Positions 1,348-21,572 of a stretch of 45,829 bases of DNA are shown here, in pieces. This stretch comes from Candidatus Hadarchaeota archaeon (GTDB lineage Archaea > Hadarchaeota > Hadarchaeia > Hadarchaeales > WYZ-LMO6). A model generated the notes under the pieces. It did no database searches, was not told where the DNA came from, and worked only from the letters and a program-made list of their open reading frames with translations. Location: contig CAZDZG010000003.1 of assembly GCA_964509845.1 (NCBI GenBank), forward strand, positions 1 to 45,829, written 5' to 3'. The translations under genes and the position numbers were made by a program. The stretch's first letter is position 1. Each line of letters starts with the position of its first letter.

Positions 1348-1369
1348 TTCTGCTTTTTCCTGGGTGACG

Positions 1370-2101: not shown

Positions 2102-2118
2102 TCTTCCTCGACCCTCAT

Positions 2119-2125: not shown

Positions 2126-2131
2126 TTGAAA

Positions 2132-6306: not shown

Positions 6307-7783
6307 AGCTCATCACCCTGGGTTCGTTCCTCTGGAGGTCCAGCACCGTAACCATGCCGGGGGTGGGCACGATGCCCCTTTCCCTCATGTAGCTAGTCAT
6401 GCTCTGGAAGGTTCCGGAGTTGATGGCCCAGACCCCCCGGTACCTCTTGTATCCCGAAACGTGAAGGTGCCCGCAGTGCAGCACGTCGGGAACCTCGTCT
6501 ATCACCAAGAAATCCCTCCTTTCCGGCACCACCGCCACCTTGCCTCCGTAGACGGGGGCCAGGTGCCTGGACCTGAGCAGCCTTATCATCATGGAGGCCA
6601 CATCCCTTCCCGCGCTCCCCGGCAGGGCGGTGGCCAGGTCATCAAAGCTCCTCCCGTGGTAAATGAGGAACTTGATCCCGTGGAGGGAAACCCAGGCGGG
6701 ATTTCCCACCATGACCGCCTTCAGATCGTAAAGCCTTCCCGCCAGCTCCTTGGGGATCGCCGGCTGGGGTTCGGAGGGCCTCACCGCGTCGTGGTTTCCC
6801 GGGGAGAGGATCAGCCTTATGTGGTCGGGTATCCTGCCCAGAAGGTCCGCCACCTCCTCATACTGCTCAAAAACATCGTCTAGGTAGAGCTCCTCCTCCT
6901 GCCCGGGATAGATGCCTATGCCGTCCACCAGGTCCCCCGCCACCACCACGTACTTCACCCTCCCCGCCAGCTCCCTCTGGGAGGAATTGCCCAGCCTTCC
7001 CTCCAGCCAGAGGAGGAACCTGTTGAAAACCTCCCTAAGAAACATCCGGCTCCCCACGTGCAGGTCGGAGAGGAGGACGGCGCAGACGGGCTCCTCCACG
7101 CTGGGGGAGGCGGAGGAGGTGGGAAGGTCGGGCCAGGCTATGTCCCTGGCCACTATCCTGGGCTCCCTGTCCCCGGAGCGGAGCGTGCCCTCCACCCCTA
7201 TTACCTCGTCCAGAAGCACCTCCTCCGCCTTCCGCATCAGCTCCTCGCTCTTGCCCCGATACACCCAGACCGCCGCCGAGCCGGTGGGATCCTCCAGCCT
7301 TATGAGGAGATGGCCCCCCGGCGTTTCCCTCTTCTCCACGACCATCCCCACCACCCTTACCTCCCTCCCCTCCTCCATCCCGGTCAGCTCCGCCAGCGGG
7401 GGAGGGTCGGCGTAATCCGCCCTCTTCATCAGGAGGGCCTTCAGCCTCTCATACCTGTCCAGGAAGAGCTGCAGGAAGTCCCTCACCCCTCCCTTGCCGT
7501 AGCTCTTCCCCGTCACGTCCTTCAGGACCTCCACCCTCTCCTCCACCTCGGCCGCCAGGGGCCTGAAGCGGGACTGGGGAGACTCCACCCATTCCTGTCT
7601 GGGGGGAGATGGCTCCAGTACCTTCCTCACCAGCTCCGCCGTCACGATGAATTCTTTCCCACGCAGGGCCTCCAGGACCCTCTCCGCCTCCTTCTCCCCC
7701 TTCTCCTCCAGAAGGCGGAGGGCCTCGGGGGTTAGGCACATCCTTGCCTCCTGGAACCTCCTGACCAGCGCCGCCCCGTCCAA
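6299..7783 (-). CDS. polB: DNA polymerase II (PolD) small subunit DP1 (3'-5' exonuclease)
   Basis: 494-aa ORF with TTG start. It carries calcineurin-like phosphoesterase motifs LSDLHVGS, AGDLVDGIG, PGNHDA and HCGHLH, preceded by an OB-fold-like region. Confidence 0.93.
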   Translation of the reverse strand: MDGAALVRRFQEARMCLTPEALRLLEEKGEKEAERVLEALRGKEFIVTAELVRKVLEPSPPRQEWVESPQSRFRPLAAEVEERVEVLKDVTGKSYGKGGVRDFLQLFLDRYERLKALLMKRADYADPPPLAELTGMEEGREVRVVGMVVEKRETPGGHLLIRLEDPTGSAAVWVYRGKSEELMRKAEEVLLDEVIGVEGTLRSGDREPRIVARDIAWPDLPTSSASPSVEEPVCAVLLSDLHVGSRMFLREVFNRFLLWLEGRLGNSSQRELAGRVKYVVVAGDLVDGIGIYPGQEEELYLDDVFEQYEEVADLLGRIPDHIRLILSPGNHDAVRPSEPQPAIPKELAGRLYDLKAVMVGNPAWVSLHGIKFLIYHGRSFDDLATALPGSAGRDVASMMIRLLRSRHLAPVYGGKVAVVPERRDFLVIDEVPDVLHCGHLHVSGYKRYRGVWAINSGTFQSMTSYMRERGIVPTPGMVTVLDLQRNEPRVMSFV

Positions 7784-7787
7784 CCTA

Positions 7788-9011
7788 TCACCACGGGAGC
7801 TTGGACTGGCGGGGGAAGGATAGGTTGGGGGAGAAGCCCTCCCCCTCCAGTATTTTCCTCAGCTGGTGAGCGGGAAGGTTGAGGAAGATCTGCTTGGTCC
7901 TGCCATACCTCCCGCTGTTCAGGATCCTGGTGCCCACTATCCCCAGCATCTCCAGCTCCGCCAGCAGGTCGCTCACCCTCCTCGGGGTGAGGACATCCGC
8001 CCCCTGCTGGAGGGCCACCCTCCGGTAAGCCTCATAGGCCTGACCGGTGGTTATCCTCTCCTCCCCCCCCTCCGCCAGCAGGAGGAGGCCCAGGAGGAGG
8101 AACTTGGACTGACTGGGCAGGGTGCCGATGAGCTCGAGGGTCTTGTCCTCCTCCAGCTTTCGGTAGGCCCTGTCCACGTGCTCCGGCGTGACCCCCGTCG
8201 CCCCCTCCTGCTCCGCCAGCTCCCCCGCCACCCTGAGGAGGTCCAGCGCCCTCCTGGCGTCCCCGTGCTCCCTGGCCGCATGGGCGGCGCAGAGGGAGAT
8301 CACCCCCTCCCCCAGCACCCCAGGCTGGAAGGCCTCGGAGGCCCTTTCGGAAAGGATGTCCGCCAGCTGGAGGGCGTCGTAGGGCGGAAACACCAGCTCC
8401 TCCTCCCCCAGGCTGCTCCTGACGCGGGGATCCAGGTACTGGGTGAACCTCAGGTCGTTGGAGATCCCTATCACGCTGACCTTGGCCCTCTCCAGCTCCG
8501 AGTTCACCCTGGTCAGGTCGTAGAGGACCTCGTCCCCCCTCTTCACCACCATCCTGTCCACCTCGTCCAGCACGATGATCACCACCCTGTCCCGCGAGTC
8601 CAGTGCCCTGACGAAGCGATCGTAAAGGACATCCACGGGCCAGCCGGTGGTTGGGATGGGTGACCCGTCCAGCAGGGCGTTGGTCAGGGTGGCCAGGACC
8701 CGGTAGCGGGTATTGACCCTCTCGCAGTTCAGGTAAATCCCCCTTATCTCCCTGTTGAGCTCCCTGCCCGTCCTCTCCAGCTCCCCCAGCACGTATCTTA
8801 CCGTGGCCGTTTTTCCCGTCCCCGTCTTTCCGTAGATGAAAACGTTGGAGGGGGCCTCCCCCCTCAGGGGGAAGGAAAGGATCCTGGCCAGCTGCTCTAT
8901 CTGCTCTTCCCGGTGCGGAAGCCTCTCCGGCAGGTAGCTGGGCCGGAGGAGCTCACGGTTTCTGAAGATCTGCGGGGCTTCCAGCCAACTCCTGAAGAGC
9001 TCTCCCTTCAT
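7788..9011 (-). CDS. cdc6: Orc1/Cdc6 replication initiator
   Basis: 407-aa ORF. N-terminus reads IFRNRELLRPSYLPERLPHREEQI, Walker A is GKTGTGKT, Walker B is VLDEVD, and there is a C-terminal winged-helix-like region. Confidence 0.95.
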   Translation of the reverse strand: MKGELFRSWLEAPQIFRNRELLRPSYLPERLPHREEQIEQLARILSFPLRGEAPSNVFIYGKTGTGKTATVRYVLGELERTGRELNREIRGIYLNCERVNTRYRVLATLTNALLDGSPIPTTGWPVDVLYDRFVRALDSRDRVVIIVLDEVDRMVVKRGDEVLYDLTRVNSELERAKVSVIGISNDLRFTQYLDPRVRSSLGEEELVFPPYDALQLADILSERASEAFQPGVLGEGVISLCAAHAAREHGDARRALDLLRVAGELAEQEGATGVTPEHVDRAYRKLEEDKTLELIGTLPSQSKFLLLGLLLLAEGGEERITTGQAYEAYRRVALQQGADVLTPRRVSDLLAELEMLGIVGTRILNSGRYGRTKQIFLNLPAHQLRKILEGEGFSPNLSFPRQSKLPW

Positions 9012-9471
9012 CTCCCCCCACCTTCAGCCTTTTCATCATCCAGCCCCTCCACTCCTCGACCTTCTCCCCCAGCTCCCTCAGCAGCACCTTTTCCTCAGGG
9101 GTGATCCCCTTGGCCTGCGAGGGGAAGAGGGAGAAGCGCACCAGCTTGCCCAGCCTGAGCTCCAGGAAGTCCTCCACAACCCTCCTCAGCTCCCCCTCCC
9201 TTCCCTCCCTCCTCAGGTGCTCCATCTCCTCCGCCACCAGCAGGTAGAAGTCCGGCGGGAGGGGCTGGAGGCCCGCCTGCCTGGCCTCGGAGAGCTGGAA
9301 CCTCTTCACCGCGGCCGGCCCCATGGGCTGCAGGGGCTCTGCCAGCCCGTGCCTCCTCAGCACCCTTAGCTGCCAGTGCTCCAGCTCCACCTCCTCCCCG
9401 GCCCTGAGGTGGGAGAGGGGCTCACCCAGCCCCAACTCCAGGTCCTGCCTGATGACCGAGCGGATCTTCAT
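8953..9471 (-). CDS. GINS subunit (Gins23-like B-A domain order)
   Basis: 172-aa ORF. A beta-rich N-terminal part (EVELEHWQLRVLRRHGLAE) is followed by a helical part with LPPDFY...R..KL, typical of GINS A domains. It has an ATGA overlap with mcm and a 59-nt overlap with cdc6. Confidence 0.6.
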   Translation of the reverse strand: MKIRSVIRQDLELGLGEPLSHLRAGEEVELEHWQLRVLRRHGLAEPLQPMGPAAVKRFQLSEARQAGLQPLPPDFYLLVAEEMEHLRREGREGELRRVVEDFLELRLGKLVRFSLFPSQAKGITPEEKVLLRELGEKVEEWRGWMMKRLKVGGDEGRALQELAGSPADLQKP

Positions 9472-11462
9472 CCCTTGACCACCCTCGTGACGTAGCCCTG
9501 CTTGGGCTCGTAGAGGAAACCGTCCCTCTTTTCCTCCTCTATCACCCTCAGGGTGAAGTTCTCCTCTATTCCCTCTTCCCTGGCCCTCTTCACTATTTCC
9601 TCCACCGGCGCCATGCCCCCGTGCTTGTTCTCCACCTCCGCAATCAGATCCATTATCCTGAGGATCTTGTCCCGCTGCGACTTGCTCCTGCCCGTCATCA
9701 CCAGGTCTATGTCCAGCTTTCCCGTGGAGGTGTCGAAGCCCGCCTCGCGCAGGTACTTGGAGATGAGCTCGATCGCCCTGCTCACATCCTCCTCCGTCAC
9801 CTCCTGCCTGAAGTGCATCCTGGCGCTCGCCTTGGCCAGCCTTATCATGGCCTCCAGCTGCCTGGGGGTGATGGGAACGGGTGCCTCCCCCCTCTCCGCC
9901 ACGCTCCTGTTCCTGACGTAGAACTCCTCCATCTTCTTAAGGACCTTCTCATCCTTGAGCTTGGGGTGGATGTACTTCTTGGCGTAGATTATCAGCTTCC
10001 TCAGCGTTTCGGAGTCGATGGGGGGTTTGGCCACCTCCGGCTTCCTGTGGAGCTCCAGCATGTGCCTGGCTATCTTCTTGTCCCTCTCGCTCTGCGGCTC
10101 ATCCCGCAGGATGAAGATGAGGTCGAATCTGGAGAGGATCACGGGCTCCAGGCCTATCTGCTGAACCAGGTTGCGGGTCCGATCCAACCTCCCCATCTTG
10201 GGGTTGGAAGCGGCGAGGACGGAGGTGCGGCAGTTCAGGGTGGCCACGATCCCGGCCTTGGCCACCGAGATGGTCTGCTGCTCCAGCGCCTCCAGGATGG
10301 CGCTTCTGTCCTCCTCCGACATCTTGTCGAACTCGTCTATGCAGGCCACCCCCCCATCCGCTATCACCAGGGCTCCGGCCTCAAGCGTCCACCCTCCCCC
10401 CAGCTCGTCCCTGACCGCCGTCGCCGTGAGCCCGGCCCCCGTGGCCTTCTTGCCGGAGGTGTAAAGGCCCCTGGGGGCCACGCTTGCCGTCCAGGTTAGC
10501 AGCATGCTCTTGGCAACCCCGGGATCCCCCGTGAGGAGGATGTGGATGTCCCCCCTGATCCTGGTCCTGTCGGGAAGCTGAAGGGGATCGCAGCCGAAGA
10601 GCATGAGGGCTATCCCCTCCTTCACGGCCTCATATCCGTGAACACTCGGTGCTATGGACCGGATGATCTTGTCGTAGAGCCAGGGATCCTTGATCATCTC
10701 CCTGATCTTCCGCTCATCCTCCTCCGTGAGCTCGGTCTCCTCCACCCCCTTCTGCTGGACCTCCAGGTACGAGATGTCCAGGATCTTCCGGAAGGTCTTC
10801 CTCTTCTGCCTGGGACCTCCCTCCTGGAAGACCTCCAGGATTCCGCTCGCGACCACGTGGTTTCCCGGAACGGCCACGTCCACCAGGTCGTCCCTCACGA
10901 TGCAGTCCAGCATCATGGGCATGCGTCCCCCCCTCAGCTCCTCATGCCTCTCCTGAATCCTCAGGCTCTGCCAGTCCCTGAACTCGGACTTCTCCACCTC
11001 AAGCTTGAAGGGCCCCCTCCTCTTGCAGTTGGGGTTCTGGCAGCTGAGGGGCTCCCTGTAGCTCTCCTCGCTCTGCAGCACCGGGTTGAGCTCGCCGCAG
11101 TGAAGACACTTGAAGAGGGCCTCCCTGAGCTCAGGCTTTATCTCGCTGGCCCTGGTGAGAATGCCCTCCACCTGGATGAACTTCCCCACGTGCTCCGCCC
11201 TGAGGTCCCTGATCTTGACGGTCTCCCCCGCCCCCCTCACCCTGAGCTGCATCTTGGGGCGGCCGGTGATCTCCACCAGCAGCTCGTTGGCTATGCGGAA
11301 GAAGTGGCGGGGGGATTCCAGCAGGGCCTCCGCCAGGGTCTTCTTCCCTTCCCACTCGGAGGTCGCCAGCTCGTCGAAGGTCAGAACTAAAGAGTTCTCC
11401 CCCTTCGCCTCCGCGTTCTTCAGCCTCCTTACCATTTCCTTCTGCGAGAAGAACTCCCTCAA
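9468..11462 (-). CDS. mcm: MCM replicative helicase
   Basis: 664-aa ORF. It has a zinc finger (CLHCG...CQNPNC), Walker A GDPGVAKS, Walker B CIDEFDK and arginine finger SRFDL. The ORF-track start is TTG and the true start is uncertain. Confidence 0.95.
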   Translation of the reverse strand: MREFFSQKEMVRRLKNAEAKGENSLVLTFDELATSEWEGKKTLAEALLESPRHFFRIANELLVEITGRPKMQLRVRGAGETVKIRDLRAEHVGKFIQVEGILTRASEIKPELREALFKCLHCGELNPVLQSEESYREPLSCQNPNCKRRGPFKLEVEKSEFRDWQSLRIQERHEELRGGRMPMMLDCIVRDDLVDVAVPGNHVVASGILEVFQEGGPRQKRKTFRKILDISYLEVQQKGVEETELTEEDERKIREMIKDPWLYDKIIRSIAPSVHGYEAVKEGIALMLFGCDPLQLPDRTRIRGDIHILLTGDPGVAKSMLLTWTASVAPRGLYTSGKKATGAGLTATAVRDELGGGWTLEAGALVIADGGVACIDEFDKMSEEDRSAILEALEQQTISVAKAGIVATLNCRTSVLAASNPKMGRLDRTRNLVQQIGLEPVILSRFDLIFILRDEPQSERDKKIARHMLELHRKPEVAKPPIDSETLRKLIIYAKKYIHPKLKDEKVLKKMEEFYVRNRSVAERGEAPVPITPRQLEAMIRLAKASARMHFRQEVTEEDVSRAIELISKYLREAGFDTSTGKLDIDLVMTGRSKSQRDKILRIMDLIAEVENKHGGMAPVEEIVKRAREEGIEENFTLRVIEEEKRDGFLYEPKQGYVTRVVKG

Positions 11463-11625
11463 CTTTTCCTTCAGTCCCTCCTCAAGTATGGCAGGCTCCA
11501 GAAAATCACCCCCTTTGCCCCGTTTTCGCGATCCCGTTTAAGCGAAGTGGTGCTAAGAGAGCACCCTTTTCCTTTCAAATGGGGAAAATTTTTTCCGTCG
11601 AAAAAAATTGGATATACCATTTTTT

Positions 11626-11645
11626 CACCCCTCCGTTCCCTCCTT
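11626..11645 (-). promoter_or_regulatory. half-ORB-like element (GGGAACGGAGGGGTG) in the mcm operon leader
   Basis: Plus strand CACCCCTCCGTTCCC matches ORB-a plus strand CACCCCTTCGTTTCC at 13 of 15 positions, but the TCCA dyad arm is missing. It lies next to an AT-rich tract. Confidence 0.3.
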
Positions 11646-11709
11646 CTCGTGTTTTTACTTCTGTAACAAATTTCTTCCGGAGAGAGAGGTGACCCGAAGT
11701 TTTGAATCC

Positions 11710-13014
11710 CTAGCGGAGCCTGATGTACTCGTAGGCCTCGGCCGCCGAGTCAAAGGCGTAGTGGATCTTGGTAAACTCCTTTCTGAACTCCCTCACCTCC
11801 TGAGCCACCCTTTCCGGGGCCTCCCCCTTCACCACCACCCGCAGGATGAATTCCGCCACCCTCCCCATTTCCTCCTCCTTCATTCCCAGCCTGGTGACCT
11901 CCGAGACCCCCAGCCTTATCCCGCCCGGATTCCGGTAATTCCTCCCCTCCCTGATGTCCCAAGGCAGAAGGTTTCTGTTCACCAGGATGTTGGCCCTCTC
12001 CAGCTTCTCCTCCACCGCCCTTCCCCCTCCCTCCCTCACCACCTCCACCAGGATGGTGTGGGAGGAGGTGAAGCCCAGCTCGGCCGCCAGCACCCTCATC
12101 CCCCCATCGTAGAGCTCCTGGGCCAGGGCCCTGGCGTTCCTTACTATCTGGGAGGCATACTCCCTGCCGAACTCCAGCATCTCGGCCAGGGCCACGTTCA
12201 GGGCGGCCACGCAGTGAAGGTGGTGATTGCTCACCACTCCCGGGAAGACCGCCCTGTTCACCCTCTCGGCCAGCTCCTTCCTGCACAGGATCATGCCGTG
12301 CTGGGGGCCGGGGAGGGTTTTGTGGGTGCTGCAGGTCATCACGTCCGCTCCCTCGCGGAGGGGATCCTGGAACTGCTTGCCCGCTATCAGCCCGGCCACG
12401 TGGGCCGCGTCGTACCCTATGTAGGCTCCCACCTCATCGGCCACCTCCCGGAGCTCCCGCACGGGGTGGGGGAAAAGCATCACACTTCCGCCGAACAGGA
12501 GGAGCTTGGGCTTCAGCTCCCTGACCTTTTTGGTGGCCTCCCCCACCTCTATGTTCATCCTCTTCTCATCAAAGGGCCAGTACTCCACCTCCAGGCCGTG
12601 GACGGCTCCCGCCGTGCCCCCCAGCTTCTTCCTTCCCATGCTTATGTGCCCCCCGGACGGTATGGAGAGGCACATCATCGTGTCCCCGGGCTCGGTCAGG
12701 GAGGTGTACATGGCCAGGTTGGCCGTAACGCCCGAAACGGGCTGGAGGTTGGCGTGCTCGGCCCCGAAGAGCTCCTTCGCCAGCTCTATCCCCAGCAGCT
12801 CCACCTCGTCTATGTACCTGCAGCCGGCGTACACCCTTTCCCCGGGCCATCCCTCCGCGTATCTGTGCTGGAAATCGGTGATCAGGGCCTCCCTCACGGC
12901 CAGGCTGGTGATGTTCTCGCTGGCTATCAGGTTTATCGTTCCCTTCATCCACTCGTGGTGTTTGCGCAGGAGTTCGAAGGTCCTGTCAAAGGCTTCCCTG
13001 GCTCCCATCCTCAT
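11710..13014 (-). CDS. glyA: serine hydroxymethyltransferase
   Basis: 434-aa ORF with NLIASEN, YAEG, and PLP-lysine context TCSTHKTLPGPQ. ATGA overlap with thrC. Confidence 0.95.
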   Translation of the reverse strand: MRMGAREAFDRTFELLRKHHEWMKGTINLIASENITSLAVREALITDFQHRYAEGWPGERVYAGCRYIDEVELLGIELAKELFGAEHANLQPVSGVTANLAMYTSLTEPGDTMMCLSIPSGGHISMGRKKLGGTAGAVHGLEVEYWPFDEKRMNIEVGEATKKVRELKPKLLLFGGSVMLFPHPVRELREVADEVGAYIGYDAAHVAGLIAGKQFQDPLREGADVMTCSTHKTLPGPQHGMILCRKELAERVNRAVFPGVVSNHHLHCVAALNVALAEMLEFGREYASQIVRNARALAQELYDGGMRVLAAELGFTSSHTILVEVVREGGGRAVEEKLERANILVNRNLLPWDIREGRNYRNPGGIRLGVSEVTRLGMKEEEMGRVAEFILRVVVKGEAPERVAQEVREFRKEFTKIHYAFDSAAEAYEYIRLR

Positions 13015-14231
13015 GCCAGAATCCCCCTTACCTCCTCCACCTCCACCTCAAGGGGTGCCCCCGCCACCCTCACGATCTCCTCGGGATCCTTCATCAAATT
13101 TCCCGTGGCCACGCAGACCACCACCTCATCCCTGTCCACCTCTCCTGCCTCCACCAGCTTTTTAAGCCCTGCCAGGGAGGCGGCGCTGGCCGGCTCCACC
13201 CCTATTCCCTCCGTCCTCGCCAGCAGGAGCTGGGCCTCCACTATCTCCTCATCCGTAACGCTCTCCGCCGTTCCCCCCGAGTTTCGGATGGCCCTCAGGG
13301 CCTTGGGTCCGTTCACGGGATTACCTATCCTGATGGCCGTGGCTATGGTCTCCGGATTCTCCACCGGGATGAACCTGTCAAGCCCCCTCTTTATGGCATC
13401 CACGATCGGTTTGGCCCCCTCGGCCTGGATGCCCGTCATCCTGGGCATCTCCTTTATCAGGTCCATCCTCTGAAACTCCAGGAAACCCTTGTAGATGGCC
13501 CAGATGTTGGCGCAGTTCCCCATCGGCACCACCACCCTGTCGGGGGGCCTCCAGTCCAGCTGCTCGATCACCTCGAAGGCAAGGGTCTTCTGGCCCTGGG
13601 GTCGGAAGGGGTTCACGGAGTTCAGCAGGTAGGCTCCCCCGGCCTCACACATCTCCCTCACCAGGGAGAGGGCCCTGTCGAAGTTCCCCCGGATGGCCAC
13701 CACCCTGGCCCCGTAGGCCAGGGCCTGGGCGAGCTTCCCCATGGCCACCTTTCCGGCGGGCAGGATCACCAGGCACGGAAGGCCTGCCTTGGCCGCGTAA
13801 GCGGCCAGGGAGGCCGAGGTGTTGCCGGTGGAGGCGCAGGCCACCGCCCTCGCCCCCAGCTCCAAGGCCCTGGTGACCCCCACCGTCATCCCCCTGTCCT
13901 TGAAGGAGCCCGTGGGGTTGGCCCCCTCGTACTTCACGTATATCCCCCGGATCCCCCACCTCTCCTCCAGCCTCCTGCATCGGTAGAGGGGGGTCCCACC
14001 CTCCCCCAGCGTCACTATCTTGCCCTCGTCCTCTATGGGCAGGAGGGGCCTGTACTTCCAGACCCGGAGGGGCTCCCTTTCCCACCTCCCCCTGTCCACC
14101 TTCTCCCTTACCTCCTCCAGATCGAGCTCTATCTCCAGGAGCCCCCCGCAGCGGGGACACTGATACAGGACCAGGTGGGGATCCCACCTGGCCCTGCATT
14201 CAATGCACTCGTACTCGAACCAGGCCCCCAT
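13011..14231 (-). CDS. thrC: threonine synthase
   Basis: 406-aa ORF with an N-terminal zinc ribbon (CIEC...CPRCG), PLP-lysine motif GSFKDRG and ASTGNTSAS. Confidence 0.93.
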   Translation of the reverse strand: MGAWFEYECIECRARWDPHLVLYQCPRCGGLLEIELDLEEVREKVDRGRWEREPLRVWKYRPLLPIEDEGKIVTLGEGGTPLYRCRRLEERWGIRGIYVKYEGANPTGSFKDRGMTVGVTRALELGARAVACASTGNTSASLAAYAAKAGLPCLVILPAGKVAMGKLAQALAYGARVVAIRGNFDRALSLVREMCEAGGAYLLNSVNPFRPQGQKTLAFEVIEQLDWRPPDRVVVPMGNCANIWAIYKGFLEFQRMDLIKEMPRMTGIQAEGAKPIVDAIKRGLDRFIPVENPETIATAIRIGNPVNGPKALRAIRNSGGTAESVTDEEIVEAQLLLARTEGIGVEPASAASLAGLKKLVEAGEVDRDEVVVCVATGNLMKDPEEIVRVAGAPLEVEVEEVRGILA

Positions 14232-14255
14232 TTTCCCCTTTTTTCTCCCGGGAGG

Positions 14256-15260
14256 TTATAGCCTCCCACCCCTCAGAGCCTGGTGGACATCCACCAGGTC
14301 TCCCAGGAGGGAGCTGGAGGTCTCCTGCGGCCCCGCCCCAAAGCCCGTGAGGGTTATCTCCCTCGCCAGATCCAGCTCAAAGGTCACGGCGTTGAGCGTC
14401 CCGCTCACCGCCAGGGGGTGATGGAGGGGAACCAGCTTGGGGCCCACCTCCAGGACCCTCTCCGTCGCCGTGCCCACCAGCCTGACCGCATATCCGGCCT
14501 CCTGCGCCAGACGTATGACCTGCGGGGTGATCCTGGTTATTCCCTCCCTCCTGACATCCTTCAGCTTGACGTTCCTGCCCAGCACGGCGTTGGCCAGGAT
14601 GGTTATCTTGCAGGCCGTGTCCACCCCCTCCAGGTCCAGGCTGGGATCCCTTTCCGCGATCCCCAGCTCCTGGGCCTCCCTGAGCACTATCTCCAGCGGC
14701 ACCTCCTCCTGGCTCATGCGGGTGAGGATGTAGTTGGTGGTGCCGTTGAGCACGCCGCGGATGGCCAGGATCCTGTTCCCCGTCAGGAGCTTCCGGGCAA
14801 AGCCTATGACGGGTATGGCCCCCCCCACCGAAGCCGAGTACCTGAACTCCACCCCCCTCTTCCGGGACAGCTCCTCCAGCTCCCTGAAGGCCACCACCAG
14901 CGGGCCCTTATTGGAGGTGATCACGTGCTTTCCCGACAGCATGGCCTCCTTTATGTGCGTCAGCCCGGGTTCCCCCGTCTCTATGTTGGTGGGGGTGAGC
15001 TCGAAAACCAGCTCACCCTCCACCTCCCTCACCACCTCCCTCCCGCTGATCTTCTTCCCCTCCACCCTCCCCTTCTCCACCAGCCGCAGAAGCTCCTTGG
15101 GGGGAAGACCCTCCTCCCTTACCAGGGCTCCGTTCCTGTCCACCACCGCCGTTATGGTGGGGGAAAGGCCGTACCTCCTGCTGAGAACCTCCCTCTTCTG
15201 CAGCAGGGATCTCACGAGCGCCCTTCCCACGTTCCCGAAGCCCAGCACTATTACCCTCAA
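14256..15260 (-). CDS. hom: homoserine dehydrogenase
   Basis: 334-aa ORF with Rossmann VLGFGNVGRA, ITSNKGP and ASVGGAIPVI motifs. TTGA start/stop overlap with the upstream ACT gene. Confidence 0.9.
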   Translation of the reverse strand: MRVIVLGFGNVGRALVRSLLQKREVLSRRYGLSPTITAVVDRNGALVREEGLPPKELLRLVEKGRVEGKKISGREVVREVEGELVFELTPTNIETGEPGLTHIKEAMLSGKHVITSNKGPLVVAFRELEELSRKRGVEFRYSASVGGAIPVIGFARKLLTGNRILAIRGVLNGTTNYILTRMSQEEVPLEIVLREAQELGIAERDPSLDLEGVDTACKITILANAVLGRNVKLKDVRREGITRITPQVIRLAQEAGYAVRLVGTATERVLEVGPKLVPLHHPLAVSGTLNAVTFELDLAREITLTGFGAGPQETSSSLLGDLVDVHQALRGGRL

Positions 15261-15712
15261 GCCCCCTCCTCCAAAGCCCTCATGAAGAGGAGCCCCCTCT
15301 CCTCGGAAATCCTCTCCAGAAGGGCCAGCACCTCCTCCAGCTCGTCCTCGTTCCTCCCCTCCAGGCTGAGGCGAACGGCCATCTCTCCCTTCCCCATGAG
15401 CAGCCTCATGTCCGAGATCCTGGCCTTGCCCGTCCTGCTCACCCTTTCCGTTATCCCCCTCAGGTCCTCCACCCCCATCCTTCCTGCCATCAGAACCGTC
15501 CTCCCGAAGAACTCCTCCTTTTCCCCCACATACTTTATCCTGACACCCCGGCTCTCCAGCTCCGACAGGATCCTCCTGAACCTCTCCCTGCTACCTATCT
15601 CCAGCACCACCCTAACGGGAACGAAACCGGACTTGGTCTTCTTCTCCCTCCTGTGCACCACGCTCTTGATGTTCCCCCCGAAACGGGAAATGGGTTCTAG
15701 AGCCCTCACCAA
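15257..15712 (-). CDS. ACT-domain regulatory protein (amino-acid metabolism)
   Basis: 151-aa ORF from TTG. An ACT-like first strand and loop (ILVSLELELEDVPGQL) are encoded in frame upstream of that TTG, up to about 15757, so the real start is probably upstream and non-canonical. Confidence 0.7.
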   Translation of the reverse strand: MVRALEPISRFGGNIKSVVHRREKKTKSGFVPVRVVLEIGSRERFRRILSELESRGVRIKYVGEKEEFFGRTVLMAGRMGVEDLRGITERVSRTGKARISDMRLLMGKGEMAVRLSLEGRNEDELEEVLALLERISEERGLLFMRALEEGA

Positions 15713-15775
15713 CTGCCCTGGAACGTCCTCTAGCTCCAGCTCCAGGCTGACTAGAATCTCACTCCCTCCCGTTCC

Positions 15776-16174
15776 TCATCTCCTTCTCTTCGGAATTATC
15801 AGGAGCAGGAGGCCCTCCTTCAGCCTCAGGGTGCGCTCCTCGGGGACGGCCTTGGGGGGGAGCTCGAAGGTGGAGAAGTAGGCCTTTCCGTCCCTCCTCC
15901 TCGCCACCACCTCGATGGCCCTCCCCCTCCTCCTCACCTCCACCCTTTCCCTTTCCACTCCCGGAACGTGCATGCAGAAGATGATCTCCCAAGGTCTCTC
16001 CAGGTAAAGGTATTCCGTTTCAAGCGTTCCCTTTATCTCCCGATCCTCCGATTCCCTGATCCTCCGAACCCCCACCTGTGAGCCACCCGATCCCTTCACC
16101 CCTATCGTTTCACCCCCCTTCTCCATCTCCCCGACCAGCTTCCGTATCTTTTTAAAAAACTCCTCCTCAAACAT
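15776..16174 (-). CDS. hsp20: small heat-shock protein, Hsp20/alpha-crystallin family
   Basis: 132-aa ORF. The alpha-crystallin-like core reads HVPGVERERVEVRRRGRAIEVVARR...YFSTFELP...LRLKEGLLLLIIPK. Confidence 0.7.
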   Translation of the reverse strand: MFEEEFFKKIRKLVGEMEKGGETIGVKGSGGSQVGVRRIRESEDREIKGTLETEYLYLERPWEIIFCMHVPGVERERVEVRRRGRAIEVVARRRDGKAYFSTFELPPKAVPEERTLRLKEGLLLLIIPKRRR

Positions 16175-16210
16175 CTTGGTTATCTGTTCTCCCCACTAAT
16201 AAAGCTTCAG

Positions 16211-16235
16211 CCACCCCTTCGTTTCCACTGGAAAC
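16211..16235 (-). promoter_or_regulatory. ORB-like origin recognition box (ORB-a)
   Basis: The reverse complement reads GTTTCCAGTGGAAACGAAGGGGTGG. This gives a TCCA-N-TGGA dyad, GGAAAC and a G-string. It lies in the hsp20 / LAGLIDADG divergent intergenic region, directly beside the AT-rich tract 16236-16290. Confidence 0.6.
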
Positions 16236-16276
16236 CTCTATCCCTTTTTATGGCTCTTTTTGTGATATATATACAG

Positions 16277-16627
16277 ATGAAGCTTTCGGAGGAGGAAAGG
16301 GGCTGGGTGCTGGGATACTTGGAGGCCAAGGGTTGCTTTTCCCACAACAGGGTGGTCACCAAACGGGGGCTCTACCAGAATCCCGCCTTCTTCGTGACCC
16401 ACAGGGAAAAGGAGCCGCTCCTGCTGCTCAAGGAGAAGACGGGGCTCGGGGAGGTGAGGAGGGCGGGGGGATTGTTTCGGTGGGAGGTGAGGAGGAAGGC
16501 GGAGGTGATGGAGCTCCTGGACCTGCTGGAGGGCGGCCTCAGGCTACCCTCCAAGATCCGTCAGTACGAGAGGTGGAAGAGGGAGGTTCTCCAGTGGAAA
16601 CAGAGGGGGATCCCCAAAGCCTTATAG
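16277..16627 (+). CDS. free-standing single-motif LAGLIDADG-fold protein (catalytic acidic residue replaced by Lys)
   Basis: The ORF track gives 16250-16627. The ATG at 16277 (MKLSEEERGW...) fits a TTTTTA box at about 16244-16249. The motif WVLGYLEAKGCF aligns to LAGLIDADG-[SC]F, and the downstream pattern FFVTH...LLLLKEKTGLGEV...FRWEV...ELLDLL is typical of the fold. Confidence 0.65.
   Translation: MKLSEEERGWVLGYLEAKGCFSHNRVVTKRGLYQNPAFFVTHREKEPLLLLKEKTGLGEVRRAGGLFRWEVRRKAEVMELLDLLEGGLRLPSKIRQYERWKREVLQWKQRGIPKAL
16589..16609 (+). promoter_or_regulatory. ORB-like origin recognition box (ORB-b)
   Basis: CTCCAGTGGAAACAGAGGGGG shares TCCAGTGGAAAC + NN + AGGGG with ORB-a in inverted orientation. 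It lies inside the 3' end of the LAGLIDADG ORF, about 40 nt upstream of the topoisomerase IB start. Confidence 0.6.
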
Positions 16628-16650
16628 CGGGGTAACTTTGGTTGGGGGTG

Positions 16651-18219
16651 ATGCCGATTAAGTCGCTCGTTCACAGAGGGGTGCTCGTTCCCTCCTACGA
16701 GTGGAAGGGCCTTCACCTCTTCTATCGTGGCAGGAGGCTGGAGCTGAATCCCGTTCAGGAGGAGATGGCCGTGGCCTTCGGAAGACACCTCCTGGCGGGA
16801 AGGGGGGAGGACAGGGTCTTCGTTAGGAATTTCCTCACGGATTTCTGCAAGGCCCTGGGGATACCCAAGGACACGGAGCTGAAGCATTTCGACTTCTCCC
16901 CCATCCTCAGGTGGATAGAGGAGGAGAAGAGGAAGAAGGAGGGGATGAGCAAGGAGGAGCGCAAGAGGCTGGCTGAAGAAAGGAAGCGCCAGAGGGAGTT
17001 GAACAGGGAGAGGTGGGGGGTGGCCTGGATCGACGGGGAGAGGGTTGAGGTAAAGAACTACACCGTCGAGCCCCCCTGCGTCTTCGTGGGCAGGGGCAGG
17101 CATCCCCTCAGGGGAAGGTGGAAGCCCAGGGTGGAGTACGAGGACATCATCCTCAACCTCTCGCCCGACGCCCCCACCCCCGAGCTGCCCGAGGGCAGGA
17201 GGTGGGGAGGGAGGGAGTGGGATCCGGAGGCCCTCTGGATAGCCAAGTGGAGGGATAAGCTCACGGGGAAGATGAAGTACGTCTGGCTCTCCGATACCTC
17301 CCCCCTCAAGCAGGAGAGGGAGAGGGAGAAGTTCGATCGTGCCAAGGCCCTAGGGGAGGAAATAGAGAGGGTCAGGGAGCACATAAGGAAGCACCTGTCC
17401 GATCCCGATCTCAAGCGGAGGATGGTGGCCACGGTGTGCTATCTGATAGACGAGCTGAAGCTGAGGGTGGGGGATGAGAGGGACAGGGAGGAGAGGAACA
17501 CGGTGGGGGCCACGACCCTGGGGCCGGAACACCTCAGGTTCAACGGAGGGGAGGTGAGGTTCAGCTTCTTGGGCAAGGATCACGTCCGCTGGTCCAAGAC
17601 CCTCAGGCCCATCCCGGAGGTCCTCAGGAACCTGAGGGAGTTCGCGAGGAGGGGTGGGGAAAGGCTCTTTCCCGGGGTCAGCTCCGAGGACGTGAACGCC
17701 TTCCTGGGGGAGGTGGTCCCTGGGCTGACGGCCAAGGTCTTCCGCACCTACCATGCCTCGAGGATAGTGGAGGAGGAACTGAGGAAGGCAGGAATAGGGA
17801 AGGAGAACACCGAGATGGAGAAGAGGTGCGCGGCGAAGAGGGCCAACCTGAGGGCAGCGGAGGAGCTGAATCACAAGCGAAAGGTACCCGCGGGCTGGAA
17901 AAGGAAGGTGGAGAGGCTCAGGGAGAGGATAAGGAAGCTTGAGGAGAGGCTGAGGGAGCTGAGGGCCAAGCGGGGCAGGAGGAAGGAGGAGAGGCTGAGG
18001 AAGCTGAGGGAGAGAATAAGGGAGCTGAAGCTCAGGCTGGAGCTGGAGAGGGAGATAAGGGACTTCAACCTGGGCACCTCCCTCAACTCCTACATAGATC
18101 CCAGGATCTACGTCAGGTGGGCCAGGGAGGTGGGGCTGGGGGTGGAAAAGATATATCCCAAGTCCCTCCAGAGGAAGTTCTCCTGGGCCCTGTCCGAGGA
18201 GCCGGAGCCGACTTTTTAG
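16651..18219 (+). CDS. eukaryote-type DNA topoisomerase IB
   Basis: The ORF track starts at TTG 16642; there is an ATG at 16651. The N-terminal region GVLVPSYEWKGLHLFYRGRRLELNPVQEEMAVAF resembles human Top1 core subdomain I. TAKVFRTYHAS covers the Arg590 region and LNHKR the His632 region. A long R/E/L coiled-coil linker follows, then LGTSLNSYIDPRIYV with the active-site Tyr context. Confidence 0.9.
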   Translation: MPIKSLVHRGVLVPSYEWKGLHLFYRGRRLELNPVQEEMAVAFGRHLLAGRGEDRVFVRNFLTDFCKALGIPKDTELKHFDFSPILRWIEEEKRKKEGMSKEERKRLAEERKRQRELNRERWGVAWIDGERVEVKNYTVEPPCVFVGRGRHPLRGRWKPRVEYEDIILNLSPDAPTPELPEGRRWGGREWDPEALWIAKWRDKLTGKMKYVWLSDTSPLKQEREREKFDRAKALGEEIERVREHIRKHLSDPDLKRRMVATVCYLIDELKLRVGDERDREERNTVGATTLGPEHLRFNGGEVRFSFLGKDHVRWSKTLRPIPEVLRNLREFARRGGERLFPGVSSEDVNAFLGEVVPGLTAKVFRTYHASRIVEEELRKAGIGKENTEMEKRCAAKRANLRAAEELNHKRKVPAGWKRKVERLRERIRKLEERLRELRAKRGRRKEERLRKLRERIRELKLRLELEREIRDFNLGTSLNSYIDPRIYVRWAREVGLGVEKIYPKSLQRKFSWALSEEPEPTF

Positions 18220-20070: not shown

Positions 20071-21441
20071 TCATACCAGCTCCAGGCTCCTTCCCCTCTC
20101 CGGACAGATCACCCTTCCGTCCCCCACGAACTTCCTGAACAGCTTGGGCCTCTCGGAGTGCACCACTATCACCTTCCTCGGCCCCAGCCTCTCCACCACC
20201 TCCCTGAGCTCCAGGGAGCTGGCGTGGCCCGAGGCATGGATGTGAAACATGGGGAGGCCGAGGAGCTCCAGCCAGTTGGCCAGCTTACCGAACTCTATCT
20301 CCCCCTCCTCATCCCAGGGCTCGCTCTCGGAGTAGATGAAGAGGGAGCCGGGCCTGGGCCTGATCTCCAGGAGCTCCAGCATGTCGTAGTAGGTGGAGAA
20401 GAGCAGGACCCTCTCCTGGTTCTCCGAAACCCAGGAGCTGTTCACGTTCTCGTAATCCAGCAGTTTCCTCTCCCAGCCGTACAGGGTCTTCTTCTCCTTT
20501 CCGTAGATCTTCACTCCCGGATCCCCCAGCTTGAAGGGGAAGCGAAGCAGGCCCTTCTCTATCTCGGGACGCAGGAACTCCAGCAGGGCGGCCTGCCTTC
20601 TGGAGAGGACGAACTCCCTCCCCGCCTCCTGGGCCACCTCGAAGAAGGTACGCAGGCGATCCAAATCCACGCTGGAGAAGCTGGCCGCCACCAGCCCCCT
20701 GGCCCGGGAGAGGAGGGCCCTCACCTTCTGCTTGACCTCCTCCTCGCTGGAGGGCCTCGATTCCAGCACGTTGGTTCCCTCCATGACGAGGAAGTCCGGC
20801 TCTTCAGCCTCCGTGAGGAAGTCCTCGGTCAGGCGGGGGAGATGGCCGTGGAGGCGGAAATCCCCGGTGTAGACCAGCCTGCCCTCCGGGCCATCCACCA
20901 CGAAGCCGTAGGAGGCGGGGATGGAGTGGTCCACGTGCACCGGCTTCACCTCAAACTCACCTATTTCCAGTTTACTCCCGGTCCTGAAGGTCACCAGGTT
21001 TCCAAGCCCCCTGGGCGACCAGAAGCAGTGGTGGAGGGGGCCTGGCCCCTCCTGGAACTTGGCGAGCCTCTGCTCCTCCGGCCTAAGGGAGGAGATCTCC
21101 CTGGCCAGGATGATCCTCCAGGTCCCCTCCCCCACGTACAGGGGAAGATCCGGCTTAAGGTACCTCACGTAGTCCATGTGGTCTAGGTGGGCGTGGGAGA
21201 GCAGGACGCCGGAAACCTCCGGCCTCCTTTCGTCCCAGGGGTAGAGACCGGGGAGGTCGGGGAGGAGGCCCATGGAGTATAGCTGCTCACCGTTTTTCGG
21301 GATCAGGTAGGGATCGGAGAAGTAGCTGGCCTCCCTGGAAAAGCTCTTTCCGAAGTCCAGCAGGATCTTGGTTTCCCTCCCCTCCAGCAGGAGCTGGTTC
21401 CCCCCCACCTCCCCCGCCCCCCCGAAGACGGTTAGCCTCAT
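20071..21441 (-). CDS. metallo-beta-lactamase / beta-CASP hydrolase, RNase J / aCPSF2-like
   Basis: Motifs HAHLDH, VDHS, TGDFR, MEGTN, HASGHAS and VVHSE are present. The ORF-track start 21558 runs through tRNA-Val, so I use ATG 21441 (MRLTVFGGAGEVGGN). Confidence 0.7.
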   Translation of the reverse strand: MRLTVFGGAGEVGGNQLLLEGRETKILLDFGKSFSREASYFSDPYLIPKNGEQLYSMGLLPDLPGLYPWDERRPEVSGVLLSHAHLDHMDYVRYLKPDLPLYVGEGTWRIILAREISSLRPEEQRLAKFQEGPGPLHHCFWSPRGLGNLVTFRTGSKLEIGEFEVKPVHVDHSIPASYGFVVDGPEGRLVYTGDFRLHGHLPRLTEDFLTEAEEPDFLVMEGTNVLESRPSSEEEVKQKVRALLSRARGLVAASFSSVDLDRLRTFFEVAQEAGREFVLSRRQAALLEFLRPEIEKGLLRFPFKLGDPGVKIYGKEKKTLYGWERKLLDYENVNSSWVSENQERVLLFSTYYDMLELLEIRPRPGSLFIYSESEPWDEEGEIEFGKLANWLELLGLPMFHIHASGHASSLELREVVERLGPRKVIVVHSERPKLFRKFVGDGRVICPERGRSLELV

Positions 21442-21481
21442 CGACAACTCTCCGACGTTCCCTGATTTGTAGGTTGATCCC

Positions 21482-21556
<75 letters not shown>

Positions 21557-21572
21557 AACTAACTTGGGAAAG

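Follow-up and report, generated by a model that had tools for sequence, protein, structure and literature searches.

The window analyzed here is a stretch of 45,829 nucleotides of the chromosome of an uncultured archaeon of the order Hadarchaeales (contig CAZDZG010000003.1 of assembly GCA_964509845.1). It carries a string of replication genes on the minus strand, in the order MCM-GINS-Orc1-PolD, and, 7.2 kb from orc1/cdc6, a short region in which two inverted sequences resembling archaeal origin recognition boxes (ORBs) enclose a small gene. The genes and sequence elements of this locus are as follows.

7788-9011, minus strand: orc1/cdc6, the presumed cognate initiator, Orc1-1 clade (Pfam Cdc6_lid, Cdc6_C and AAA)
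8953-9471, minus strand: GINS gene (Pfam Sld5), in the same gene string as orc1
9468-11462, minus strand: MCM gene (Pfam MCM, MCM_OB and MCM_lid), in the same gene string as orc1
15776-16174, minus strand: gene for a 132-aa protein on the left flank, transcribed away from ORB-a
16197-16204, minus strand: TATA-like element CTTTATTA of the sHSP-like gene, separated by 6 bp from ORB-a at its G-string end
16211-16235, minus strand: ORB-a, a full origin recognition box, GTTTCCAGTGGAAACGAAGGGGTGG on the reverse complement
16236-16290, no strand: AT-rich tract abutting ORB-a on its inner side, 34.5% GC against about 64% in the window
16245-16253, plus strand: TATA-like element TTTTTATGG, read from the sequence, about 28 nt upstream of the ATG at 16277
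16257-16274, plus strand: conserved motif TTTTTG-nn-AT-nn-AT(A/G)TA(C), between the TATA-like element and the start codon
16277-16627, plus strand: gene for a 116-aa single-domain LAGLIDADG-fold protein, filling the inter-ORB space
16589-16609, plus strand: ORB-b, a full origin recognition box, CTCCAGTGGAAACAGAGGGGG, with the G-string rightward
16622-16627, plus strand: TATA-like element TTATAG, 12 bp past the ORB-b G-string and overlapping the stop codon of the LAGLIDADG-like gene
16651-18219, plus strand: gene for a eukaryotic-type DNA topoisomerase IB on the right flank (Pfam Topoisom_I_N, Topoisom_I and Topo_C_assoc)

The first-pass annotation had placed cdc6 about 7 kb from the boxes and in the middle of an operon, and both its distance and its position inside the replication gene string were borne out. 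GINS, MCM and the glyA, thrC, hom, ACT and sHSP-like genes lie between orc1 and the boxes, and this arrangement is conserved in relatives. The predicted origin is set apart from its initiator gene. Reviews describe archaeal origins as typically located beside that gene; such adjacency is typical rather than universal, so the 7.2 kb distance makes the locus less typical and still allows it to be an origin.

The best PDB matches of the window Cdc6 were S. solfataricus Orc1-1 (2QBY_A, 5e-109) and A. pernix ORC1 (2V1U, 6e-101), compared with 8e-51 for Orc1-3 and 3e-19 for the ORC2 type. Both the xRRVSD recognition helix and the GRYG(K/R)TK wing are conserved, as in Sulfolobus Orc1-1. Judged by these features, the only Orc1/Cdc6 encoded in the window is an Orc1-1 orthologue of the ORB-binding clade. 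MCM would be the helicase to be loaded at the predicted origin.

The box pair and its conservation in Hadarchaeales

Archaeal ORB elements contain a TCCA-N-TGGA dyad, GGAAAC and a G-string. The winged helix of the initiator reportedly binds the dyad half of the box and the ISM its G-rich half, as is said in the paper on the 2V1U structure. In the window, TCCAGTGGAAAC-NN-AGGGG occurs twice, at 16214-16232 on the minus strand and at 16590-16608 on the plus strand. The pattern TCCAGTGGAAACNNAGGGG, with 17 specified bases, matched the same two sites on opposite strands with no mismatches, and a search tolerating three mismatches still returned only ORB-a and ORB-b; given the base composition, chance alone would produce 7e-6 exact matches. 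These results confirm the inverted pair of ORB-like boxes, about 350 bp apart, that had been noted earlier. The two 19-nt cores are separated by 357 bp. The G-string of ORB-a points leftward and its dyad rightward, to the gene side; the pair as a whole has its dyads inward and its G-strings outward.

We also scored the DNA with an ORB weight matrix trained solely on boxes of other lineages. The two boxes of the window reached 38.6 and 36.0 bits, and the next-best site in the window 12.4 bits. Neither the pattern nor the weight-matrix scan found another ORB near orc1, near MCM or elsewhere in the window, and in the related loci (roughly 150 kb) the matrix gave no further site above 17.4 bits. 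Two weaker candidates were discarded. The weak third box of the first-pass annotation, which we placed at 16398-16413, had a background matrix score and is not kept in two relatives (L005 and L007), and a partial minus-strand box, GTGAAACGATAGGGGTG at 16093-16111, is unrecognizable in L005, L007 and L010.

The pan-archaeal ORB consensus is CTTCCAGTGGAAACGAAAGGGGT (Pelve et al. 2013, as quoted in PMC4153887). Measured against the consensus in this quoted form, ORB-a matches at 21 of 22 positions and ORB-b at 18 of 20, each with a spacer that is 1 nt shorter. Aeropyrum pernix ori1 and this consensus are among the closest known counterparts; where the consensus, again as quoted, has CTTCCAGTGGAAACGAAAGGGGT, the box described here reads TTCCAGTGGAAAC-GA-AGGGGT. 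The same one-base-shorter spacer is found in ORBs predicted for Methanomassiliicoccales (e.g., TTTCCACTGGAAACAG-AGGGGT), which also form inverted pairs, 39-256 bp apart; unlike the pair in Hadarchaeales, these pairs are intergenic and adjoin orc1/cdc6.1 (PMC4153887). In P. furiosus, the reverse complement of the Cdc6-bound ORB1 reads TTCCAGTGGAAATGAAACTCTGGGGGG (PMC1904270).

All 25 loci in which the box pair was detected have it at equal positions and with the polarity seen in the window, dyads inward and G-strings outward; the gap ranges from 341 to 387 bp. Related lineages with both sides on the contig keep both boxes in place, except for the two most divergent loci, one with a degraded ORB-b and the other with no ORB-b detected. 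The LAGLIDADG-like proteins of the box-keeping Hadarchaeales lineages fall below the 50% identity clustering level. Within the intergenic alignment, conservation is highest at ORB-a (9 of 10 lineages), which is nearly invariant and was also found in the distant loci L027, L030 and L031. In these three loci the left gene is replaced and ORB-a kept. On the right, topoisomerase IB is absent in L014, L030 and L027, where ORB-b, or what remains of it, is followed by a gene for TyrRS or a STAND ATPase. Thus, in the divergent Hadarchaeales L027 and L030 both flanking genes are changed and the boxes are retained. A metagenome scan with the sHSP-like protein for lineages having the boxes and lacking the LAGLIDADG gene returned only loci of the same arrangement.

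ORB-b corresponds to the in-frame final codons L-Q-W-K-Q-R-G of the LAGLIDADG-like gene. Synonymous-codon identity is 0.85 at ORB-b versus 0.44 in the remaining gene, and none of 100000 permutations reached 0.85; therefore, the DNA itself is under selection. A scan of the gene found no stretch besides ORB-b with comparable synonymous constraint. At ORB-b, the codons of the six-fold degenerate residues Leu and Arg are invariably CTC and AGG, and elsewhere in the gene they vary freely; in distant homologues, the single variable residue (Q/S/A) coincides with the variable spacer of the box. Both boxes are thus conserved beyond neutral expectation, ORB-a as an intergenic block and ORB-b at synonymous sites.

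AT-rich DNA, promoter-like elements and strand switches

The AT-rich tract at 16236-16290 is a candidate DNA unwinding element (DUE) and promoter region of the LAGLIDADG-like gene, and a tract of 45-55 bp lies in the equivalent place in all related loci. It had been taken for the most AT-rich stretch of the window, a rank that could not be upheld: it comes second after the intergenic region upstream of MCM (about 11546-11673), which has 27% GC over 55 bp. The tract is about 55 bp long and lies on one side; the other inter-ORB DNA (about 300 bp) is coding sequence with 61% GC. That the tract is short, one-sided and doubles as a promoter, and that the AT-richest stretch is found upstream of MCM, are points against an origin at the boxes.

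We considered the MCM-upstream intergenic region (11463-11709) as an alternative origin and rejected it because it has no ORB-like site despite its AT richness. It contains short AT palindromes and a conserved 20-mer and reads as a promoter/terminator region. A structured RNA was likewise rejected, with no credible Rfam match at 11380-11780 or 16100-16700; at the gathering threshold, Rfam found two tRNAs only in the window. Promoter and terminator models for bacteria, which do not apply to archaea, found nothing.

Each of the three genes around the boxes is preceded by a TATA-like element. A T/A-rich block is present in the alignment at the position equivalent to 16245-16253, and TTTTTATGG is the predicted promoter of the LAGLIDADG-like gene; its distance of about 28 nt from the ATG at 16277 implies a leaderless mRNA. 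For the element at 16197-16204, TAATAAA is nearly invariant in the alignment; this element lies 26 nt from the ATG at 16174 and is the predicted promoter of the sHSP-like gene. The product of that gene, the 132-aa protein, had no Pfam hit; we read its C-terminal half as sHSP-like. Topoisomerase IB is transcribed away from ORB-b, with TTATAG, 27 nt from the ATG at 16651, as its predicted promoter, and a TTTTAG/TTTTTTA block is kept in the downstream alignment. Between the TATA-like element of the LAGLIDADG-like gene and its start codon, the motif at 16257-16274 has an invariant TTTTG and nearly invariant flanking positions in an alignment of 10 lineages. Two roles are conceivable for this motif, an initially melted stretch of the promoter or a protein site internal to the origin.

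The switch in gene orientation at the boxes had been offered as a sign of an origin. The called genes from 193 to 16174 are indeed on the minus strand and the next four on the plus strand, but this is one of four switches in the window, two of them divergent, and is therefore not diagnostic. The proposed skew check had a similar outcome: cumulative GC skew does turn at 16.2 kb, but it turns again at 20, 41.5 and 44 kb. Gene strand explains the skew throughout the window, and we set it aside as origin evidence. At fourfold sites of minus-strand genes, sense-strand skew is 0.111 on the left versus 0.052 on the right, a marginal difference that the plus-strand genes do not fit. Past 20 kb, most genes are head-on to a hypothetical rightward fork. 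The head-on genes, a skew that follows gene strand and an orc1 gene that is not adjacent weigh against the origin reading.

The gene between the boxes

The first-pass annotation had described the inter-ORB space as largely coding, as it proved to be. The protein encoded at 16277-16627 matches Pfam LAGLIDADG_1 (E 3e-4) and, in a profile search against the PDB, I-Vdi141I (E 1.2e-9). Its AF2 model has a pLDDT of 88.8, and the best Foldseek matches of this model are I-Vdi141I, I-TnaI and I-CreI (probability 1.00, TM-score about 0.73-0.76). Profile, AF2 model and Foldseek all gave the LAGLIDADG fold (alpha-beta-beta-alpha-beta-beta-alpha).

In the motif GYLEAKG, Lys occupies the usual position of the catalytic Asp/Glu; it aligns with the second E of EAEG in I-Vdi141I. 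GY(L/I)EAKG is present in 10 of 10 close homologues, which are 60-77% identical, and distant members have R, A or K at the catalytic position, with one protein (P0013) alone keeping E. The gene has a GC3 of 0.86, like neighboring genes, is free-standing and occupies one chromosomal position in all lineages. The encoded residues are conserved and the synonymous sites widely diverged, so the protein is under purifying selection. Relatives of the family were not found in viral contigs, and we rejected a mobile-element origin of the family on this basis. Apparently, the inter-ORB gene is a disabled homing-endonuclease-like gene.

The homodimeric enzymes I-Vdi141I, I-TnaI and I-CreI have the fold core and the dimerization/active-site helix in common with this protein. 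They differ from it in length (150-170 aa versus about 110 aa) and in having the catalytic Asp/Glu where it has Lys, and the Hadarchaeales gene lies outside any intron or intein, at one chromosomal position across the order. Bacterial WhiA is a domesticated LAGLIDADG protein of different architecture. As the title of PDB 1T9I states, I-CreI D20N still forms a DNA complex, so loss of the acidic residue need not abolish DNA binding.

A predicted origin and its alternatives

A literature search returned no described replication origin for Hadarchaeota and no paper pairing LAGLIDADG proteins with ORBs. We consider it probable that the locus is an oriC1-type chromosomal replication origin of this Hadarchaeales archaeon, or at least its principal Orc1-1 binding locus. 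Four features of an ORB/Orc1-type origin are present, namely boxes that fit the ORB consensus, their opposite polarity with dyads inward, their conservation beyond neutral expectation and an initiator of the Orc1-1 clade. The initial proposal of an origin, or failing that a strong Orc1/Cdc6 binding locus, is supported by the consensus match, the uniqueness of the boxes in the window and the related loci, their conserved position and polarity, the constraint on ORB-b DNA and the Orc1-1 orthologue.

Under the origin reading, one Orc1-1 monomer, encoded 7.2 kb away, would bind each full ORB. Since the boxes are inverted with their dyads inward, we propose that the two bound initiators turn their winged-helix domains toward one another over about 350 bp. 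MCM hexamers would be recruited into the interval between the boxes, and melting would begin in the AT-rich tract of 55 bp next to ORB-a, on the model of Sulfolobus oriC1. The C-terminal peptide LQWKxRG would be a mere in-frame translation of ORB-b. Because ORB-a lies 6-9 bp from two divergent TATA-like elements, binding of Orc1 there would probably also block transcription that enters or leaves the origin.

The best comparison for this scheme is provided by Sulfolobus. Two inverted ORBs are necessary in oriC1 of Sulfolobus islandicus (PMC12141716), and ORBs that flank a DUE have opposite polarity, with winged-helix domains facing each other (PMC6742236). In Sulfolobus oriC1 (ORB3-DUE-ORB2), each ORB binds an Orc1-1 monomer directionally, MCM is recruited between them, and replication starts have been mapped to the point where the AT tract meets ORB3 (PMC12141716, PMC6742236). 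The locus described here likewise has two full ORBs of opposite polarity, and its initiator is most similar to Sso Orc1-1. In contrast, the core of Sulfolobus oriC1 measures about 130 bp, is AT-rich and non-coding and immediately adjoins orc1-1, whereas the interval in Hadarchaeales is 341-387 bp, with about 55 bp AT-rich and the rest a conserved gene, and orc1 is 7.2 kb and at least five genes away.

A precedent for an ORB within a coding gene is the dp1 ORB cluster of Thermococcales, which is order-wide and bound by Cdc6 in vivo and in vitro (PMC1904270). In Pyrococcus and other Thermococcales, cdc6, dp1 and dp2 are clustered near the origin (PMC1904270), and replication genes are found near the boxes here too. 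The main oriC of Thermococcales is intergenic, directly upstream of cdc6, and has many mini-ORBs, whereas the Hadarchaeales locus has two full ORBs only, one of them coding, no mini-ORB cluster and no ORB in dp1. The ORB origin of Thermococcales can be dispensable, which counts against the origin reading. Since the window covers 46 kb of the genome, there could be a larger ORB cluster outside it; in that case, by analogy, the pair could resemble the Pyrococcus dp1 cluster.

Three other explanations were weighed against a replication origin. The boxes could form an Orc1-dependent site of transcriptional control, where Orc1 or a non-initiator paralogue regulates the LAGLIDADG-like gene and/or its outward neighbors and replication starts elsewhere or by recombination. 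ORB-a is placed between divergent TATA-like elements 6 and 9 bp away, and the G-string of ORB-b is 12 bp from the next such element; therefore, both boxes have the same geometry, with the dyad followed by the G-string, the TATA-like element, about 27 nt and the ATG of the outward gene. The short AT tract fits this explanation, as do the binding of Pyrococcus Cdc6 to the ORB cluster inside dp1, outside the mapped oriC (PMC1904270), and the role of Sulfolobus Orc1-2 as a transcription regulator (PMC9738581). We nevertheless regard control without initiation as unlikely. The boxes stay while the outward genes vary by lineage (sHSP-like, 274-aa protein or MinD on the left; topoisomerase IB, TyrRS or STAND ATPase on the right), the left gene of L030 is more than 200 bp from ORB-a, no other promoter in the 46 kb and the related loci carries the motif, which a regulon would repeat at several unrelated promoters, and the resident Cdc6 belongs to the Orc1-1 initiator clade. 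The two roles are not mutually exclusive, and the same boxes could serve initiation and transcriptional control. In Sulfolobus, ORBs also overlap the orc1-1 promoter.

The LAGLIDADG fold itself, with archaeal intron-encoded enzymes as the closest solved relatives, raises the question of whether the locus is a relic of a mobile homing-endonuclease cassette. The boxes would then be part of the element or its former target, superficially ORB-like and with no present replication role. A distant homologue (P0013, in L031) keeps the catalytic Glu and adjoins another LAGLIDADG gene. This explanation is very improbable, given the fit of the boxes to the quoted ORB consensus, a gene that is syntenic and vertically inherited across the order with the GC3 of its host, Lys at the catalytic position of all close homologues, viral contigs without relatives, purifying selection on the protein and a constraint on ORB-b DNA beyond the needs of that protein. 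It could finally be argued that ORB-b is kept for the peptide VLQWKQRG, which is invariant among close homologues, and that ORB-a is a coincidence. Such a chance likeness or pure protein motif is already contradicted by the data, and we give it almost no credence: the expected number of exact matches is minute, the Leu and Arg codons are fixed at ORB-b and variable elsewhere, the peptide falls where the last helix ends, in the tail that the AF2 model predicts with low confidence, and ORB-a is non-coding yet equally conserved.

With an origin as the preferred reading, the boxes provide a precise and testable location for replication initiation in Hadarchaeota. Its architecture would be unusual and order-wide, in that the presumed helicase-loading zone is a conserved protein-coding gene, and one of the two origin-defining boxes doubles as codons under measurable double selection.

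A role of the LAGLIDADG-fold protein in this origin is possible, though we find it rather doubtful. It would be a domesticated, nuclease-dead homing endonuclease turned dedicated origin factor of Hadarchaeales, which would bind DNA inside the origin, for instance TTTTTG..ATA or the palindromic ORB dyad, and modulate the binding of Orc1 or the loading or release of MCM. Orc1 at ORB-a would in turn gate transcription of the gene for this protein through the loading zone, and the origin and its accessory gene would form one inseparable module. ORB-b would then serve both as an initiator site and as C-terminal codons. If the protein acts at the origin, it would add a new case in which chromosome replication has taken a selfish endonuclease into its service, and the locus would be the second archaeal origin, after that of Sulfolobus with UBP, to need a sequence-specific partner besides Orc1. 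UBP is a nucleoid protein that binds ucm, an essential motif inside the DUE (PMC12141716), which shows that a second protein site of defined sequence can be required between the ORBs of an archaeal origin. UBP itself has no relationship to LAGLIDADG proteins, and its gene lies outside the origin. We did not accept TTTTTG..ATA as an equivalent of ucm and keep it as a lead only: the conserved TTTTTGnnATnnATATA has a loose AT-rich likeness to the ucm reverse complement, GTTTGTATAAT.

An inverted pair of origin recognition boxes

The candidate origin lies at the divergent junction of a minus-strand block, which holds a string of replication genes, and a plus-strand block that begins with a short LAGLIDADG-like gene. 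The first-pass annotation had placed two inverted origin recognition boxes (ORBs) here, and reading the sequence confirmed both positions.

Features at and around the ORB pair
2132-5536, minus strand, PolD large subunit
5533-6306, minus strand, HAD hydrolase
6299-7783, minus strand, PolD small subunit
7788-9011, minus strand, Orc1/Cdc6
8953-9471, minus strand, GINS
9468-11462, minus strand, MCM
11710-15712, minus strand, glyA-thrC-hom-ACT
15776-16174, minus strand, small sHSP-like gene
16211-16235, minus strand, ORB-a, which reads GTTTCCAGTGGAAACGAAGGGGTGG on the reverse complement
16277-16627, plus strand, 116-aa LAGLIDADG-like gene
16589-16609, plus strand, ORB-b, which reads CTCCAGTGGAAACAGAGGGGG
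16651-18219, plus strand, complete eukaryotic-type topoisomerase IB (Topoisom_I_N, Topoisom_I, Topo_C_assoc)
downstream of topoisomerase IB, plus strand, TyrRS and MinD

When up to three mismatches were allowed, the shared pattern TCCAGTGGAAACNNAGGGG had only two matches in 45.8 kb, both without mismatches and on opposite strands; chance alone, given the base composition, would yield 7e-6 exact matches. A weight matrix trained only on boxes of other lineages scored the two at 38.6 and 36.0 bits. The next-best site in the window (39484-39507, minus strand, TCACCATAGGAAACCGGGGGGTGC, 12.4 bits) has GGAAAC and a G-string without a proper dyad and is probably a chance match. The weak third box proposed earlier, which maps to 16398-16413, was not sustained, as it scored low and is not conserved in relatives.

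The G-strings of the pair point outward and the dyads inward, with the cores 357 bp apart. According to the 2V1U structure paper, the winged helix of the initiator reportedly contacts the dyad half of the ORB; if so, this polarity is the published facing arrangement. Opposite polarity of ORBs flanking a duplex unwinding element makes the winged-helix domains face each other, with MCM loaded between them (PMC6742236), and S. islandicus oriC1 needs each of its two inverted ORBs (PMC12141716).

ORB-a agrees with the pan-archaeal consensus CTTCCAGTGGAAACGAAAGGGGT at 21/22 positions, with a spacer one base shorter, and ORB-b agrees at 18/20. The same shorter spacer occurs in predicted ORBs of Methanomassiliicoccales (PMC4153887), and the core of the Cdc6-bound ORB1 of Pyrococcus furiosus is identical to that of the window boxes (PMC1904270). 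The sole Orc1/Cdc6 of the window is closest to Sulfolobus Orc1-1 (5e-109) and Aeropyrum ORC1 (6e-101), is far less similar to Orc1-3 (8e-51) and to ORC2-type proteins, and retains the RRVSD recognition helix and the GRYG(K/R)TK wing. ORB-a and ORB-b are very probably a genuine Orc1-binding pair.

Conservation of the boxes among related loci

The equivalent locus was compared among about a dozen distinct lineages, and more distant short homologues of the 116-aa protein were collected by a library-wide profile search. In all 25 loci with a detected pair, both boxes have the same positions and polarity, with a core gap of 341-387 bp. ORB-a is the most conserved block of the intergenic alignment, flanked on one side by a TATA-like element, putatively of the divergent left gene, and on the other by the AT-rich tract. 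This tract holds a TTTTG motif that is invariant and a TATA-like element, putatively of the right gene. A nearly invariant TTTTTG-nn-AT-nn-AT(A/G)TA (16257-16274; equivalents in L005-L017) lies between this TATA-like element and the LAGLIDADG-like start codon. Some lineages have a partly palindromic form (GTTTGTAACAAAC in L005), and the motif bears a loose likeness to ucm of the Sulfolobus origin (ATTATACAAAC).

The surrounding genes are less stable. Two of the loci with distant homologues, L027 and L030 (the latter labelled Hadarchaeales), keep both boxes, with a different 274-aa protein on the left and a STAND ATPase or TyrRS replacing topoisomerase IB on the right. L031 retains ORB-a and the AT tract beside yet other neighbours; its protein P0013, the most distant short homologue, adjoins MinD, a 374-aa LAGLIDADG_3 protein and a Toprim-domain protein (L031:1648-5702), and ORB-b was not detected on this contig, which ends 26 nt past the gene. 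L014, which diverges most within the close set, has an intact ORB-a and an ORB-b without the left arm of its dyad. L015 shows a rearrangement to the left of the LAGLIDADG-like gene (1-212), and its ORB-a is reduced to the dyad (TTCCAGTGGGTTTGTCGAAT), with ORB-b and the downstream genes intact. Most Hadarchaeales loci have topoisomerase IB right beside the candidate origin, and the gene is absent from L014, L027 and L030; its division into two ORFs in L002 suggests a frameshift or assembly error. Since the boxes are kept while flanking genes vary, the gene between them is their only invariant partner. Besides the usual inner tract, the divergent L030 (7728-8001) has an AT-rich stretch of ~200 bp outside ORB-a, next to the G-string, and the side of the unwinding zone may differ among lineages.

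A box within codons and the encoded protein

ORB-b consists of the codons CTC CAG TGG AAA CAG AGG GGN, encoding L-Q-W-K-Q-R-G. When only sequence pairs that agree in amino acid are counted, codon identity is 0.85 in ORB-b columns versus 0.44 elsewhere in the gene. In 100000 draws of random column sets the value 0.85 was never reached, and the top sliding windows all fall at ORB-b. Leu and Arg have six codons each; in ORB-b they are fixed as CTC and AGG, whereas codon choice varies freely in other invariant Leu/Arg columns. Distant homologues have LQWK(S/A)RG, the sole variable residue coinciding with the variable spacer of the box. In an AF2 model (pLDDT 88.8), these residues lie outside the core fold, where the last helix ends and a coil runs on into a low-confidence tail. 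The best reading of the peptide is that it translates a DNA site under constraint. Sliding windows over the rest of the gene revealed no comparable synonymous constraint, and thus no hidden mini-ORBs.

The 116-aa protein has few homologues, and the named ones are from Hadesarchaea or Candidatus Hadarchaeales MAGs; viral contigs contain no relatives of the family. It has a LAGLIDADG fold (Pfam E 3e-4; I-Vdi141I 1.2e-9, profile vs PDB; best Foldseek matches I-Vdi141I, I-TnaI and I-CreI) with one core domain of about 110 aa. Every close homologue has GY(L/I)EAKG, in which Lys aligns with the catalytic Glu of I-Vdi141I. In distant members this position is R, A or K, and only P0013 has Glu. The gene is under purifying selection, with conserved amino acids despite wide divergence at synonymous sites, and GC3 is host-like. 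The protein looks like a long-established descendant of a homing endonuclease that has probably lost nuclease activity and would still bind DNA; the complex of I-CreI D20N with DNA (in PDB) shows that such a protein can do so.

Probable origin function and alternatives

Judged from the 46 kb of genome examined, the pair is likely to be the active chromosomal origin. One Orc1-1 monomer would bind each box, its winged-helix domain pointing inward, and MCM would be recruited to the interval. Melting may start in the AT tract next to ORB-a, on the model of Sulfolobus, where initiation maps to the AT tract/ORB3 junction (PMC12141716). Two divergent TATA-like elements lie 6 bp and 9 bp from ORB-a, and another lies 12 bp from ORB-b, so bound Orc1 would probably also shut down transcription into the loading zone. 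The sequence supports the layout of the boxes, their uniqueness, their conservation and the double constraint on ORB-b directly; this mechanism is inferred.

This promoter geometry also fits an Orc1 operator without origin function, for which the short AT tract and the Pyrococcus dp1 cluster (PMC1904270) also speak. We consider an operator unlikely, however, as the neighbouring genes change between lineages and the box occurs at no other promoter in the window or related loci. Conservation data contradict a relic of a homing cassette, which is quite improbable, and the match statistics and synonymous-site data leave next to no room for boxes produced by chance or by protein conservation only.

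Other origin signs offered by the first-pass annotation carried less weight. The window has three strand switches besides that at 16.2 kb, and GC skew, suggested as a check, tracks gene strand. Coding sequences have a strong purine bias (purines make up 0.53-0.65 of the sense strand), so GC and AT skews merely report gene orientation and skew-based origin finding is unreliable in this lineage. A fourfold-site comparison was marginal and internally inconsistent, and beyond 20 kb the majority of genes would be head-on to a rightward fork.

An ORB/Orc1 origin is of a known kind; its arrangement here is unusual. As had been noted, orc1 is distant (7.2 kb) and a gene fills most of the space between the boxes, the presumed loading zone; this gene is conserved, and one defining box is made of codons. 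The layout holds throughout an order. In our literature search, no paper dealt with origins of Hadarchaeota or connected LAGLIDADG proteins with ORBs. The replication genes (2132-11462) form a single-strand string of abutting or overlapping ORFs (59 nt for GINS/Orc1), and the order MCM-GINS-Orc1-PolD small-HAD hydrolase-PolD large is kept in every long related contig.

The tract at 16236-16290 (34.5% GC), earlier given as the AT-richest, ranks second to intergenic DNA upstream of MCM (~11546-11673). That intergenic region, downstream of glyA (11463-11709), carries short AT palindromes (AAATTTTTTCCGTCGAAAAAAATT) and, right after the glyA stop, a 20-nt block, GAGAGAG(G/A)TGACCCGAAGTT (11681-11700), conserved in four lineages; it contains no ORB or Rfam match. 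Finally, the beta-CASP/metallo-beta-lactamase RNase ORF (20071-21558), as called, runs 5' across tRNA-Val(TAC) (21482-21556); its homologues have 455 aa versus 495 for the ORF, so the true start must lie downstream.
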